In this document: piece by piece, positions 8,306 through 13,550 of the stretch | Layout: each line of letters starts with the position of its first letter | Position numbering within the stretch: the first letter of the stretch is position 1 | NCBI GenBank assembly: GCA_041395025.1 | Contig: JAWLBH010000001.1 | Location: 782,666 to 846,665, forward strand | Length of the DNA stretch: 64,000 nt | Direction of reading: 5' to 3' | DNA from: Chlamydiales bacterium | GTDB lineage: Bacteria; Chlamydiota; Chlamydiia; Chlamydiales; JAAKFR01 | Program-made: the position numbers and the translations under genes | Notes under the pieces: generated by a model | Told to the model about the DNA's origin: nothing | What the model saw: only the letters and a program-made list of their open reading frames with translations | Databases searched by the model: none

Positions 8306-10516
8306 ATGAAATTATCTACTAAATTGCTTCTTGGGGTAGGTTTGCTCCTTTGTGGGATGGTCGTACTAACATATATCCTTCCTGCCTGCTTTGTAAAACA
8401 GGATGTGTATGCGGCTGCTGAACACATTCATTCTCTCCTCATCAAAGAACATAGAAAACTGGTTGAGAGTCAAAAACATTCATTAAATGCTGAGATAGAT
8501 AGGACAGTTCAAAATATCAACTCGATCCTATTTATGCTTGGTGAGGAAAATTCTTTTTCTAACCATCTTTTATTGAAAGAAGAAAATCCTCTTTTGAATG
8601 TTTGGAAAGGAGCAGCAGATTTAGCCGGATATGATCCTGAAATTGGATTTGTTCAAATTCACTCACCAGATCAAAATCAAACAATTGTCATCTCATCACA
8701 TAATGCCAAGCTCTATACCATCAAAAAAGTATGGGAGGGAAATGGGTGGGTAGTGATGAGCATGGACAAAGCACATGAGGAAGAGATGTTGTATTTGGGT
8801 ATTCCTCTACCTAAAGCTCCTCAGGATGAAAATACTGCAACCTCTTATGCTCTGATTGAAATTAATAAAATCCTATGGGGCAAGGAAAATTTTTCTCAGA
8901 TGCTTGCGAGTCTTGTCTTGCATCAAGATCAAAATATGCCTCAAGAGATTTTTAGTGAGCCTAAAGATGATCCTGAGGCCTATTTTTGGGGCATTAAGAT
9001 AGATATGATTCGTAAATTAGCTCCACTATTTTTAGAAGGATTATCTATCCAAAAGGATCAAGAGAAAGTGATCCCTGATGGCATTGGAAGATTAGATTTA
9101 AACAATGAGGGAGTCGCACTTTTTGCAAAAGAAGTCTTCCAAACGACCCCAGTTTCTCACGATCTATTTTATGATCAAATGTATTCTTCCAAAAGAGATC
9201 AATCAATAGTAGCAGATAGTTCTATTTTTATTGTTCAACCAGAAGAAAATTCTGCATTTATTGCAAATACTCTTTTTATTCCAAATACTTTTATTTCAAT
9301 TGGATTTTCTATGAGCAATTTAATCAAAGGGCTCTCCCTCTCTTGGAATCAGACAATTTTACTAAATATCGATCAAAAAATTTGGCTTGGGTTTGATGGG
9401 AAAGGGAAAAAACTTACATCGAGTGAGATTGACAAGATTCTTCAATCTAATTCTCTTAAAGAAAATGAGGGGATGTTGTCGATTGAGGGACAATCCTCTT
9501 TTAACTCGTGTATTAAATTATTCAATGAGGATTTAGTTTTATATGCAATTGATCCCATCACTGAAGAAAAATCCATTATTGAAACTCTTCTTGAATTAGA
9601 ACATACATTATCGAGAAGAATCTCTTTGCAACTTGCTTTAATTTCTCTTGCTATCATGTTGTTAATTCTTCTATTTGTCGGGAGAATTGGCTTCACTGTC
9701 ATCTATCCTATTACAAAGTTAGCAAAAGCAACAGAAGATGTGGTTGCAGGAAACTACCAAGAGATTGTCTTTCCAAATTTAGGGAAAAGATCGGATGAAG
9801 TCGCTATACTTATTCGATCATTTGTCAATATGGTCAAGGGTTTAGAGGAAAAAGAAAAAATTCGTGGGATTCTTGATAAAGTCGTTTCTAAAGAGGTTGC
9901 AAATGAAATTCTACGCGATCGCATTCATTTAGGAGGAGAAGATAGAATTGTTACCATGCTTTTTAGCGATATTCGAGGGTTTACTGAGATGACGGAAAAT
10001 GCAACACCACAAAAAATTATTAAAATGCTCAATGCATGCATGACAAAAATTTCTCGTGTGATTGAAGGTGAAGGAGGGGTGATCGATAAATATGTAGGTG
10101 ATGAGATTATGGCAATCTATGGAGCTCCGAAATTTCATGAAGACCATGCTTTGCGAGCTGTCTCAACAGGAATGTTAATGATTGAGACTCTAAAGCAGTG
10201 GAATGAAGAGAGAGCTAAAGAAGGAGAGCCAGTGATAGAGATGGGAATAGGGATTCATACAGGATGTGTAGTTGCTGGAAATATGGGAGCTGAGAATCGA
10301 TTAAATTACACAGTCCTAGGATCAAATGTGAATTTAGCTTCAAGGTTATGTCAAGTTGCCAAAGGGAATCAGTTAGTCATTTCGAAAGCGACACTTATTG
10401 AGCCAAATGTCAAAGAATCTTTTTTTGTTGAACCACTCGAAGCCATCGCTCTAAAAGGATTTAAGGAACCAGTTTCAATCTATGAAGTTGTCCGTTTTAA
10501 ATGGGAAGAGAGCTAG
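8306..10516 (+). CDS. Receptor-type class III adenylate (nucleotidyl) cyclase: TM, large extracytoplasmic domain, TM, HAMP, cyclase
   Basis: The N-terminal TM is LLLGVGLLLCGMVVLTYILP. An unassigned domain of approx 400 aa follows, then a second TM (LALISLAIMLLILLFVGRIGFTVIY) and a HAMP-like linker. The canonical CYCc motifs are present: VTMLFSDIRGFTEMTE, DKYVGDEIMAIYGAP, GIGIHTGCVVAGNMG, YTVLGSNVNLASRL. Confidence 0.88.
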   Translation: MKLSTKLLLGVGLLLCGMVVLTYILPACFVKQDVYAAAEHIHSLLIKEHRKLVESQKHSLNAEIDRTVQNINSILFMLGEENSFSNHLLLKEENPLLNVWKGAADLAGYDPEIGFVQIHSPDQNQTIVISSHNAKLYTIKKVWEGNGWVVMSMDKAHEEEMLYLGIPLPKAPQDENTATSYALIEINKILWGKENFSQMLASLVLHQDQNMPQEIFSEPKDDPEAYFWGIKIDMIRKLAPLFLEGLSIQKDQEKVIPDGIGRLDLNNEGVALFAKEVFQTTPVSHDLFYDQMYSSKRDQSIVADSSIFIVQPEENSAFIANTLFIPNTFISIGFSMSNLIKGLSLSWNQTILLNIDQKIWLGFDGKGKKLTSSEIDKILQSNSLKENEGMLSIEGQSSFNSCIKLFNEDLVLYAIDPITEEKSIIETLLELEHTLSRRISLQLALISLAIMLLILLFVGRIGFTVIYPITKLAKATEDVVAGNYQEIVFPNLGKRSDEVAILIRSFVNMVKGLEEKEKIRGILDKVVSKEVANEILRDRIHLGGEDRIVTMLFSDIRGFTEMTENATPQKIIKMLNACMTKISRVIEGEGGVIDKYVGDEIMAIYGAPKFHEDHALRAVSTGMLMIETLKQWNEERAKEGEPVIEMGIGIHTGCVVAGNMGAENRLNYTVLGSNVNLASRLCQVAKGNQLVISKATLIEPNVKESFFVEPLEAIALKGFKEPVSIYEVVRFKWEES

Positions 10517-10518
10517 AT

Positions 10519-12373: not shown

Positions 12374-12404
12374 CTTTTGTATAGTAATAACTTATGTTTC
12401 TAAT

Positions 12405-13550
12405 ATGGAGCCAATCTCGACAGATAATACTTTCCCTAAGCTTGAGAAGAAAGTGCAAGAGATTGTGCCTTTGCGCTACGAGCGGCAAAAATTTGGGGAT
12501 TTAATTAAAGGTCTTGGACGTTCTCCTACTATCCAAACCCTGGCTGTATCGATTCTATTTACTGGCTGTTCTTTAGTTATTCTCCTTGTCAATGCTCCTT
12601 CTTGGGTGGTCGTTGCTTGTATAGTCAGTAGCTTTGGAGTAGGATTAGTGGTTGGATTAGAGTTACAACTCACTTTTGTTGATAAAGGAAAGCAAAAATT
12701 TGAATTTGAGTATAGTATGCTTAGACGTATGTTAGCTCAACAAGACTATCATCAAGTTTTTGAAGTCGGAAACTCAAAAATTTTTCTAGGAGCTCTTCCA
12801 AATCGTTTAGTCAATGACGCAAAGTACCTTTTTTACACTGAAAAGGTAGAAGCATTTTTATCCCTTAACGAACTTTGGGAAGTAACCCAGCCAAATGGTC
12901 TTGTTCTTCCCTATACCGAAATCGATTATCAAGGGTTGGATAATAAGATTATTCTTAAAAGAATTCTTGCCGAAGACCATGTTCCTTTAAATATAGATCA
13001 GCTTAATGAAGCGGCAGATTTTATTGACCAACAAGTTAAAGAAGAGAAGAATATTTATGTTCATTGTCGTGCTGGGGTTGGACGTTCAGCGATGGGTATT
13101 GCAGCTTACTTGATGAAATATCAAAATTTTACAGTTAACGAAGCTTGTCAATTAATTAAAGAAAAAAGACCTAGATCGAGCATTTATAAAAAAAGAGATG
13201 CTCTAATGGCTTATCAAGCGCATCTTATAGAGGATAATAGTAAAAAGGACAATAACAAAGTTATTGAAAAAATGGATGAAATGGCTGAGTATCTCTATCA
13301 CTCTTCAGAGATAATAGGAAATGAGTTTCCTTTTATCGGAAGGGTAGCGCATGCCTTAAAGTACAAAGAAAATAAGGACAGTCCTTCCATTTTTTGTGAT
13401 TCAAAGTTGAACGACGGGAGTAGGTTGAAATGGATATACCAAACCTATCAGAAATATTGCTTAGCAAAAAGACTCAAATCGCAAGAAGCTGCACAGAAAG
13501 ACGAGCGTAATAATGAGTTAAATCAAATATTCCCCGTATCAAAAAAATAA
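12405..13550 (+). CDS. Inc-like membrane protein (bilobed hydrophobic domain) fused to a dual-specificity / PTP-type phosphatase domain
   Basis: Cys-based phosphatase signature VHCRAGVGRSAMGIAAYL (HCxxGxxRS) with an upstream acid-loop candidate AEDHVP. The N-terminal region carries two approx 18-20-residue hydrophobic helices separated by a 4-residue loop (TLAVSILFTGCSLVILLV-NAPS-WVVVACIVSSFGVGLVVGL). This is the hallmark topology of chlamydial inclusion-membrane (Inc) proteins. Start set at M21 (12405). Confidence 0.8.
   Translation: MEPISTDNTFPKLEKKVQEIVPLRYERQKFGDLIKGLGRSPTIQTLAVSILFTGCSLVILLVNAPSWVVVACIVSSFGVGLVVGLELQLTFVDKGKQKFEFEYSMLRRMLAQQDYHQVFEVGNSKIFLGALPNRLVNDAKYLFYTEKVEAFLSLNELWEVTQPNGLVLPYTEIDYQGLDNKIILKRILAEDHVPLNIDQLNEAADFIDQQVKEEKNIYVHCRAGVGRSAMGIAAYLMKYQNFTVNEACQLIKEKRPRSSIYKKRDALMAYQAHLIEDNSKKDNNKVIEKMDEMAEYLYHSSEIIGNEFPFIGRVAHALKYKENKDSPSIFCDSKLNDGSRLKWIYQTYQKYCLAKRLKSQEAAQKDERNNELNQIFPVSKK

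Follow-up and report, generated by a model that had tools for sequence, protein, structure and literature searches.

The 64-kb stretch of a Chlamydiales metagenome-assembled genome (MAG) analyzed here, referred to below as the window, carries three consecutive forward-strand open reading frames (ORFs) between pepP and the tail of the type II secretion system (T2SS) operon. They encode a receptor-type adenylate cyclase, a sensor histidine kinase and a membrane-hairpin dual-specificity phosphatase; all statements about the window are limited to these 64 kb. Sequence comparisons indicate that the cyclase and kinase genes form an ancestral pair, vertically inherited and strongly constrained, and we conclude from the same comparisons that the phosphatase gene is probably an accessory gene, transcribed on its own and located in a variable junction. 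Together with the mechanism proposed below, this division of the region into an ancestral pair and a separate accessory phosphatase is the account we favor, with a confidence somewhat better than even.

An earlier note, made from the sequence alone, had read the three genes as one signalling islet. Much of its description was borne out: Pfam matches confirm the three domain assignments, and the ORFs do lie consecutively on the + strand between pepP and the T2SS operon. NCBI has entries, from a 1.32-Mb contig, that are 100% identical to the products of the cyclase, kinase and phosphatase genes, labelled "adenylate/guanylate cyclase domain-containing protein", "ATP-binding protein" and "dual specificity protein phosphatase", respectively. 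The pair, and the two genes that precede it, are:

8306-10516, + strand: receptor-type class IIIb adenylate cyclase, 736 amino acids (aa), with a first transmembrane helix (TM1), periplasmic sensor, second transmembrane helix (TM2), HAMP and cyclase domain
10505-10521, + strand: cyclase/kinase junction, with purine-rich GGGAAGAGAG, stop codon TAG at 10514-10516, a spacer of 2 nucleotides (nt) and the kinase ATG at 10519
10519-12273, + strand: PhoR/VicK-like sensor histidine kinase, 584 aa, with a transmembrane helix, a periplasmic loop of ~115 aa, a second transmembrane helix, a HAMP-like segment, PAS, HisKA and HATPase_c
5493-7256, + strand: mutL (Pfam DNA_mis_repair 2.8e-31, MutL_C 3.9e-20; exact start codon uncertain)
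7219-8259, + strand: pepP, M24 Xaa-Pro peptidase (Pfam Peptidase_M24 3.3e-69)

Synteny and divergence of the cyclase-kinase pair

The gene mutL opens a block, mutL-pepP-cyclase-kinase, that recurs widely. We scanned one genome per species (GTDB) and found 188 relatives; the counts given here cover the best 80 loci, all from MAGs. These loci are mostly labelled Chlamydiota and some Verrucomicrobia, under which GTDB places the class Chlamydiia, and they include Simkaniaceae, Rhabdochlamydiaceae, Parachlamydiales, Ca. Amphrikana, Ca. Acheromyda and Ca. Algichlamydia. The neighbors of the cyclase gene in these loci were distributed as follows:

63 of 80 loci: kinase directly 3' of the cyclase, same strand
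7 of 80 loci: kinase 0.9-5 kb 3' of the cyclase
1 of 80 loci: kinase adjoining the cyclase, opposite strand
3 of 80 loci: cyclase and no kinase despite at least 3 kb of downstream flank (L057, a paralogue; L058; L068)
6 of 80 loci: downstream flank too short to judge the kinase
63 of 80 loci: pepP directly 5' of the cyclase
8 of 80 loci: pepP farther 5' of the cyclase

In most loci mutL also lies upstream of the cyclase, and all close cyclase orthologues (44-63% identity) follow mutL-pepP and stand immediately before the kinase. The spacing at the front of the pair is tight: in the window pepP overlaps the 3' end of mutL and its stop lies 46 nt ahead of the cyclase start, and the pepP-to-cyclase gap in close relatives ranges from -4 to +84 nt. 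The earlier note had proposed a lineage-specific insertion and had named broad conservation at this position as a finding that would speak against it. Broad conservation is what the cyclase and kinase genes display, with the four-gene order present in most of the 80 loci and with divergence that follows that of the neighbors. Among these loci, all retrieved through the cyclase, the co-occurrence and co-localization that the note had suggested examining across genomes hold for cyclase and kinase, and do not extend to the phosphatase.

Two of the loci have titles at odds with this distribution. L016, "uncultured Chlamydiaceae bacterium", a 1.8-Mb contig, has mutL-pepP-cyclase and a kinase, and L018, "Chlamydia trachomatis isolate MaH-04nov19-12", has mutL-pepP-cyclase and ends inside the cyclase; both cyclases are 37-39% identical to that of the window. 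These titles probably reflect loose MAG taxonomy. Were L016 truly related to Chlamydiaceae, the point at which the genes were lost would shift.

The junction between cyclase and kinase is tighter still. The kinase has two candidate start codons, an ATG at 10501 that would overlap the cyclase by 16 nt and the ATG at 10519, 2 nt past the TAG. We take 10519 as the better start because the 584-aa NCBI protein matches it with 100% identity and coverage, and because tblastn alignments in several close relatives open at that Met; the abutment described by the earlier note is therefore upheld. Among the 45 loci where the kinase N-terminus could be placed, the distance from cyclase stop to kinase start has a median of -4 nt (the ATGA overlap type) and is 20 nt or less in 39, and the near-overlapping stop/start is kept down to ~40% identity. 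In a Simkaniaceae MAG (L075, 11400-11560) the kinase has neither a transmembrane helix nor HAMP and starts directly with the PAS domain; GGAGG precedes this start, which is 12 nt from the stop of the cyclase. By this spacing the soluble kinase is still tightly coupled to the cyclase. A cyclase-kinase fusion in this MAG, suggested by both matches falling in one frame, was ruled out by the stop codon, the GGAGG and a new ATG in the DNA.

We compared divergence across loci by normalizing similarity to the window's proteins to the self-score and computing Spearman correlations. The cyclase and kinase cores correlate with pepP and mutL at rho 0.51-0.68, where pepP against mutL gives 0.56, and cyclase core against kinase core, at 0.72, is the highest among the core-domain pairs tested. 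Conservation as a fraction of self-score is 0.53 for the cyclase core, 0.50 for the kinase core, 0.36 for pepP and 0.42 for mutL, and falls to 0.20 and 0.24 for the sensor parts of cyclase and kinase. The signalling cores are thus more conserved than pepP and mutL, and the sensor parts diverge fast.

Nor does the region stand out in composition. The GC content is ~36% with no step (0.33-0.38 inside the region, 0.32-0.40 in the flanks), flanking repeats are short chance ones only, and no tRNA or Rfam family was found at the region. None of these signs of a genomic island is present, and only the phosphatase has a patchy distribution. The pair looks ancestral because its divergence follows that of mutL and pepP, because compositional and mobile-element signals are lacking and because the synteny is wide. 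The absence of cyclase and kinase from the Chlamydia map, which might suggest an insertion in the window's lineage, is more simply read as loss in Chlamydiaceae. We therefore regard as very improbable the view that the three genes constitute one horizontally acquired, lineage-specific sensing-and-effector islet whose members act together. It can appeal to their consecutive arrangement on one strand, to the identical order in the closest relative (L088) and in L001, and to the membrane-anchored signalling enzyme that each of them encodes. Against it stand the presence of cyclase and kinase here in most of the environmental chlamydial lineages sampled, the agreement of their divergence with that of mutL and pepP, the unremarkable composition, and the behavior of the phosphatase gene described below.

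Domains and predicted signalling of the cyclase and the kinase

The domains identified within the two proteins, all on the + strand, are:

8393-9610, + strand: periplasmic sensor domain of the cyclase, residues 30-435; stalk helix and tandem PAS-like/Cache-like modules
9695-9850, + strand: HAMP linker of the cyclase, residues 464-515; Pfam HAMP 20.4 bits, below the 25-bit cut-off
9950-10483, + strand: cyclase homology domain, residues 549-726; D555, D599, K595, T669, N676, R680
11263-11556, + strand: PAS domain of the kinase (Pfam)
11590-11781, + strand: HisKA domain of the kinase (Pfam)
11614-11616, + strand: phospho-acceptor His366 of the kinase, in the H-box
11923-12252, + strand: HATPase_c domain of the kinase (Pfam)

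The cyclase matches Pfam Guanylate_cyc (PF00211) at 3.4e-30, with 105.4 bits against a cut-off of 21.9, and in all orthologues conservation begins at Met1. Its six catalytic residues are the metal residues D555 and D599, the class IIIb adenine-specificity residues K595 and T669, and the transition-state residues N676 and R680; all are invariant (n=11 orthologues). They align one-to-one with those of the class IIIb enzymes CyaC (Arthrospira/Spirulina platensis, 1wc0; E 7e-29) and CyaB (Pseudomonas aeruginosa, 3r5g; E 6e-33); in the guanylate cyclase Cya2 the K is replaced by E and the T by G. The protein therefore has the marks of class IIIb, namely a score above the PF00211 threshold, the metal Asp pair with Asn/Arg, and the adenine-specifying Lys, with Thr replacing the Asp of class IIIa. 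The fold of the cyclase domain matches Cya2, CyaC and CyaB with TM-scores of ~0.8 on the target. We predict from these residues an active, ATP-specific homodimeric enzyme. That it might instead be a guanylate cyclase or a catalytically dead receptor seems to us highly unlikely: Cya2 is the closest solved structure by sequence (2.5e-39, 37-39% identity), but Lys595 and Thr669 are as in CyaC and CyaB rather than Cya2, and the invariance of the metal Asp pair and the Asn/Arg pair argues against a dead enzyme.

The N-terminal regulation of the protein is wholly different from that of CyaC and CyaB, consisting of two transmembrane helices, a periplasmic Cache-like domain of ~400 aa and HAMP. The HAMP segments of orthologues and of one paralogue exceed the Pfam cut-off, and the model of the window cyclase shows helix-connector-helix at this position. 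With the full-length cyclase model, fold searching gave matches to the catalytic domain only, and the sensor was modelled separately. The AlphaFold model of the sensor alone (pTM 0.77) has a long stalk helix and tandem PAS-like modules, and its Foldseek matches in the PDB are almost all double-Cache ligand-binding domains (vpHK1S-Z8, Tlp3, PctD, McpH, Mlp24/37, PscC, TlpQ and KinD), with E from 4e-4 to 1e-2 and probability 0.97-1.0 and TM-scores of only 0.2-0.35. No Pfam family, the dCache/Cache models included, matched residues 30-435 at E<=0.01. In its model the sensor resembles dCache domains (vpHK1S-Z8 3lid, Tlp3 4xmq, PctD 7prq, Mlp24, PscC, KinD) in the stalk helix and the tandem PAS-like alpha/beta modules between transmembrane helices; it differs in being ~400 aa long, against 250-300 aa, and in having an extra beta-rich module. 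An exhaustive search of 1.84 billion representative proteins yielded just 30 matching cluster representatives, nearly all 690-825 aa long, matching at residues ~30-440 and with a consensus ending in the same cyclase domain. As modelled, the sensor is probably a divergent Cache-like domain, private to this small chlamydial cyclase family.

Variants of the cyclase also occur. L017, L019, L020, L052 and L077 have sensor-less cyclases of 350-410 aa with two close transmembrane helices (cyclase at ~10001-11110, locus coordinates). L057 carries a second cyclase paralogue (5620-7677, + strand; 685 aa, HAMP and cyclase domain), whose 3' end is overlapped by a GDPD phosphodiesterase gene (7634-8443, + strand); the paralogue is also present in L082. 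Two further features of L057, at 12790-14634 and 14589-16400 (both - strand), correspond to the genes found ~7 kb from the paralogue. These are a cNMP-binding/NTE/patatin protein, which is a candidate effector of cyclic AMP (cAMP) and suggests that cAMP receivers exist in the group, and a strong homologue of "animal haem peroxidase" (1.3e-112), unusual in a bacterium.

The kinase matches HisKA (5.7e-17), HATPase_c (1.8e-30) and PAS (1.1e-08) in Pfam and contains the H-box SH366ELKTP together with DKGIG and GSGLG (the G1 and G2 boxes). The NCBIfam models that rank best are PnpS, WalK and PhoR, and the JGI label on the orthologues is PhoR. Its best PDB match is VicK of Streptococcus mutans (4i5s, 6.5e-41), whose HAMP-PAS-DHp-CA architecture aligns with kinase residues 217-579. 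By architecture, then, the kinase is PhoR-like, and not a certified equivalog.

The genes of VicK and WalK adjoin the gene of their own regulator. Unlike these, the kinase studied here is never found within ~10 kb of a receiver domain in 83 loci. To look for regulators and cyclic nucleotide (cNMP)-binding proteins, we searched the window and ~10 kb around the pair in the 83 loci at permissive thresholds, using CheY, PhoB, OmpR and CRP as seeds together with a small receiver hidden Markov model. Neither a receiver domain nor a cNMP-binding protein was found there, with the exception of the neighbor of the L057 paralogue, and Pfam searches of the other large ORFs of the window showed no regulator, cNMP-binding protein, PhoU or Pst gene.

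The earlier note had called the kinase an orphan, and the lack of an adjacent response regulator, which it had pointed out, stands. A counterpart of the kinase has, however, been paired with a regulator in the literature. In Waddlia, Wcw_1870 is described as PhoR-like, absent from Chlamydiaceae and paired with PhoB (de Barsy et al. 2016, PMC4989314), which also agrees with the remark of the earlier note that the kinase is no part of the pepP/T2SS neighborhood in Chlamydiaceae. This PhoB is ~80% identical across the chlamydial families other than Chlamydiaceae (PMC4989314), and the homologue in Chlamydiaceae is ChxR, which is without the phospho-accepting Asp (PMC4989314). The partnership of PhoB with Wcw_1870 is a hypothesis of that literature, not a demonstrated phosphotransfer (PMC4989314). 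ChxR is among the regulators conserved phylum-wide, and its co-regulation with the T2SS operon has been predicted (Domman and Horn 2015, PMC4652624). The conservation of PhoB is taken from these two papers (PMC4989314, PMC4652624), and our own data cover 64 kb of the genome.

In Waddlia chondrophila, mutL (wcw_1868) lies at 2008591-2010339 and a 586-aa "signal transduction histidine kinase", wcw_1870, at 2011429-2013189 on the same strand (PMC4989314 supplement). The gap between mutL and kinase, 1.09 kb, fits pepP and is too small for the 2.2-kb cyclase. Wcw_1870 and the window kinase (586 against 584 aa) agree in strand, in lying 3' of mutL and a pepP-sized gene, in PhoR-type domain order and in the lack of an adjacent regulator; the window kinase is probably the counterpart of Wcw_1870. 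Because the literature pairs that counterpart with a PhoB encoded elsewhere, the kinase, without an adjacent regulator, is yet probably not a true orphan. By analogy with Waddlia we infer that it signals to a distantly encoded PhoB.

We propose the following mechanism. The pair would represent envelope-signalling genes that close the conserved mutL-pepP block in chlamydiae outside the Chlamydiaceae. In the homodimeric class IIIb cyclase, the Cache-like periplasmic domain would sense a small ligand and signal through TM2 and HAMP, and so switch cAMP synthesis. Because the kinase start lies within a few nt of the cyclase stop, the two proteins would be made from one mRNA, probably with coupled translation. 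The kinase would autophosphorylate at His366 and pass the phosphate to a regulator of the OmpR/PhoB family encoded elsewhere; chlamydial PhoB, which is highly conserved and corresponds to Chlamydia ChxR but can be phosphorylated, is the best candidate. In Chlamydiaceae the kinase would have been lost and, judging from the literature, the cyclase too, a loss that would fit a ChxR turned phosphorylation-independent. The phosphatase, catalytically intact by its sequence, would most likely be exported by type III secretion and reside in the inclusion membrane with its DUSP domain facing the host cytosol.

A stronger form of coupling would make cyclase and kinase the two output arms of a single envelope-sensing unit, hence their co-translation, either as a physical complex with the Cache-like domain of the cyclase as periplasmic input or with cAMP feeding into the kinase-PhoB pathway. 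We consider this an unlikely elaboration. If true, the unit would control the developmental or secretion program of environmental chlamydiae, and its loss in the ancestor of Chlamydiaceae would explain the phosphorylation-independent ChxR. Concurrent loss of the two sensor domains, considered as evidence for coupling, was set aside: just L017 is without both; elsewhere a cyclase without sensor is paired with a complete kinase, or the reverse. Somewhat less doubtful, though still improbable, is the opposite view that cyclase and kinase are functionally unrelated sensors whose adjacency reflects inherited synteny and operon inertia, so that the spacing would mean co-expression only. In its favor, mutL and pepP are functionally unrelated and yet equally syntenic, Waddlia has the kinase without the cyclase while L057 (paralogue), L058 and L068 have a cyclase without the kinase, and sensor domains were lost independently in different lineages. 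It accounts less readily for a near-overlapping stop/start retained in 39 of 45 loci at such low identity, for a cyclase-kinase correlation at the top of the core-domain pairs, and for adjacency that persists even with a soluble kinase.

Several results weigh against the ancestral, constrained pair and the mechanism proposed for it. The 80 loci were retrieved through the cyclase, so their counts show linkage of cyclase to kinase and not the converse, and Waddlia keeps the kinase in the same synteny with no space for the cyclase at that position, where the cyclase appears to have been lost or relocated. The match of the window kinase to Wcw_1870 is by size, strand and mutL-linked synteny, not by sequence. 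The kinase falls below every NCBIfam equivalog cut-off (PnpS 305.7 against 400, PhoR 262.6 against 334.2, WalK 268 against 725), and the published Waddlia PhoB box has 3 matches in the window against 2.6 expected, none of them near the locus. No cAMP receiver was found in the window by Pfam and seed searches. The double-Cache likeness of the sensor is weak in TM-score and the Pfam dCache models give no match, and the sensing inputs are not uniform, with five lineages having a sensor-less cyclase and ~25 a kinase without the loop.

A probable accessory hairpin phosphatase in a variable junction

The phosphatase gene differs from the pair in its transcription signals and its distribution. Its features are:

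12345-12373, + strand: sigma-70/sigma-66-type promoter TTGACA-17-TATAAT, 12/12 match
12405-13550, + strand: membrane-hairpin dual-specificity phosphatase, 381 aa; hydrophilic N-terminus, bilobed hairpin, DUSP domain
12525-12680, + strand: hairpin, residues 41-92
~12777-13190, + strand: DUSP domain
13065-13067, + strand: Cys221

The promoter is the sole 12/12 match in the 64 kb, where ~0.02 would be expected by chance. The phosphatase ATG (12405) lies 131 nt, and the -35 hexamer 71 nt, past the kinase stop (12273); the promoter and both spacings are exactly as the earlier note gave them. A TTG start at 12345, which would give a longer ORF, was rejected: it is the -35 hexamer, and the product is 381 aa from the ATG at 12405. 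Near-consensus promoters precede all four syntenic copies of the gene (12/12 in the window and L084, 11/12 in L001, 10/12 in L088).

These four, the window, L088 (with a cyclase 63% identical), L001 and L084, are the only loci in which the phosphatase lies between the kinase and the T2SS tail, and just one among the 80 species-representative loci contains it. Between it and the kinase in L084 lie two genes on the opposite strand, for a 721-aa protein and a 161-aa TPR protein. In the genome behind L009 a family member (L086) lies ~1.3 Mb away. The suggestion of the earlier note that the three genes could form one module is not supported: the phosphatase gene is missing from 79 of the 80 loci, occupies a different place in the L086 and L089 genomes, is preceded by a conserved promoter of its own, and is separated from the kinase in L084.

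In L089 (8001-10112) the phosphatase member is directly 5' of a DDE_Tnp_1 transposase and far from any cyclase or kinase; the transposase beside it hints that the gene moves. Other genes occupy the kinase/T2SS junction in other lineages (L011 13863-20224, L084 5223-7870, L017 12511-14558, L019 12593-15863, L002 14052-14966). L002 has a 304-aa protein of unknown function, L019 a 968-aa TPR protein, and L011 a 6-kb insert with a TPR protein and a 708-aa multi-hairpin protein containing several bilobed hydrophobic segments. In both L011 and L084 a minus-strand protein of ~710-720 aa stands beside a 161-aa TPR gene resembling type III secretion chaperones, and in other sister lineages the junction is empty or holds other genes. 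The junction between kinase and T2SS is a hot spot of lineage-specific cargo.

The protein itself matches Pfam DSPc at 3.1e-20 (72.8 bits, cut-off 33.5). The active site HCRAGVGRS occupies residues 220-228, and the general acid D191 lies 30 residues upstream. The family comprises 31 clusters, whose source names are all either chlamydial or generic labels of function. The hairpin and HC(X)5R[ST] are common to the 31 homologues, and in 22 of them the motif reads HCRAGVGRS; D191, C221 and R227 are invariant in 24 aligned members, and Pro64 and Trp67 of the hairpin turn are conserved in at least 90%. The best PDB matches are DUSP10 (3e-10) and PTPMT1 (1e-6), with weak matches to PTEN and the glucan phosphatase LSF2. 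Like DUSP10/MKP5 and PTPMT1, the protein has the HCxxGxxRS P-loop and the upstream Asp; it adds an N-terminal hairpin and is without the MAPK-binding domain. Protein, phosphoinositide and glucan are candidate substrate classes.

The hairpin at residues 41-92 is the Inc-like anchor described by the earlier note. In Inc proteins a short hydrophilic N-terminus is followed by ~50 residues that form a bilobed hydrophobic domain (Dehoux et al. 2011, PMC3048545), and the phosphatase family shares this plan; unlike the described Incs, which are mostly scaffolds, it has a complete catalytic DUSP domain. No Inc linked with a dual-specificity phosphatase domain turned up in the literature searched, a limited negative. 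We suggest, at even or slightly better than even confidence, that the most likely role of the protein is to act on the host from the inclusion membrane.

The main rival places the enzyme in the bacterial inner membrane with its catalytic domain in the cytoplasm, for example as a PTPMT1-like lipid (phosphatidylglycerophosphate) phosphatase or as a regulator of phospho-signalling within the bacterium; we rate it at around one chance in four. A two-span hairpin equally allows the DUSP domain to lie in the bacterial cytoplasm, the positive charges on both sides of the hairpin are compatible with such an in-in topology, and the alignment with PTPMT1 extends across the entire catalytic domain (residues 125-262, E 1e-6). 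The better matches, however, are to eukaryotic MAPK phosphatases (DUSP10). The P-loop HCRAGVGRS lacks the second of the basic residues present in the loops of PTPMT1 and PTEN, which we take to count against a lipid phosphatase of the inner membrane. The patchy and non-syntenic distribution, including the transposase neighbor in L089, is unlike that of a core enzyme of lipid synthesis, and the combination of a ~50-residue hairpin, a hydrophilic N-terminus and no signal peptide is the defining architecture of Incs (PMC3048545). The junction in which the gene lies also holds effector-like and chaperone-like cargo. A host-directed Inc-type phosphatase is thus the reading we retain.

Relation to known systems and neighboring genes

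Chlamydial signal transduction is regarded as minimal (PMC4989314, PMC1183210). According to the Galperin census, reductive evolution left chlamydiae with histidine and Ser/Thr kinases, all other transducers being lost (PMC1183210), which fits Chlamydiaceae without the cyclase. The components found here are ordinary: a class IIIb cyclase with HAMP and a Cache-like sensor, a PhoR/VicK-like kinase of a family already noted in the literature (PMC4989314), and an Inc-like protein whose catalytic domain resembles eukaryotic ones. The literature searched contains, as a limited negative, no description of a native chlamydial adenylate cyclase, of cAMP signalling or of cyclase-kinase coupling, and "adenylate cyclase" occurs there only as a reporter assay; the arrangement of cyclase, kinase and phosphatase appears to be undescribed in it.

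An intact and strongly conserved receptor cyclase would imply the use of cAMP in most environmental chlamydiae. Its tie to a PhoR-like kinase thought to drive PhoB offers a testable frame for the PhoR-PhoB circuit before its reduction to ChxR, and a phylum-wide, constrained cAMP-plus-PhoR module in organisms regarded as poor in signalling would be a useful lead, also on the origin of ChxR. One context in which such a pair would matter is the trigger of the chlamydial developmental cycle. The phosphatase family, if secreted, would provide an Inc-type protein with an enzymatic activity of its own at the host-pathogen interface. More generally, apparent islets judged against Chlamydia can be ancestral genes lost by the pathogens.

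The gene order around the region is an Effector_1/DUF582 gene (- strand), mutL, pepP, cyclase, kinase and phosphatase (+ strand), the convergent T2SS operon (- strand) and then type III secretion genes. The downstream boundary is:

13565-21398, - strand: convergent T2SS operon, gspD-E-F-G and tail genes (from ORFs, and Pfam on the L002 and L084 orthologues)

Clusters of type III secretion apparatus genes occur on both sides of the region, at 23448-27785 (- strand), which the T2SS operon adjoins, and at 51871-59531 (+ strand). One cluster has homologues of sctT, sctR, sctL and sctJ, and the other CdsD/sctD, the sctN ATPase, sctO, DUF5421 and sctQ. Just 5' of mutL, at 2426-3970 (+ strand), is a gene for a 514-aa protein with a eukaryotic-like PI3/PI4-kinase domain (1.5e-14). 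Its neighbors, all on the - strand, are a TPR_3 chaperone-like gene (1798-2343), a gene of unknown function for 362 aa (692-1780) and the Effector_1/DUF582 gene (3980-5542). The same set is found in L001 and L002 and looks like a conserved effector/chaperone cluster. Finally, two tandem paralogues of 379 and 375 aa at 45353-47632 (- strand) match the Legionella major outer membrane protein family (3.7e-16 and 1.5e-15).

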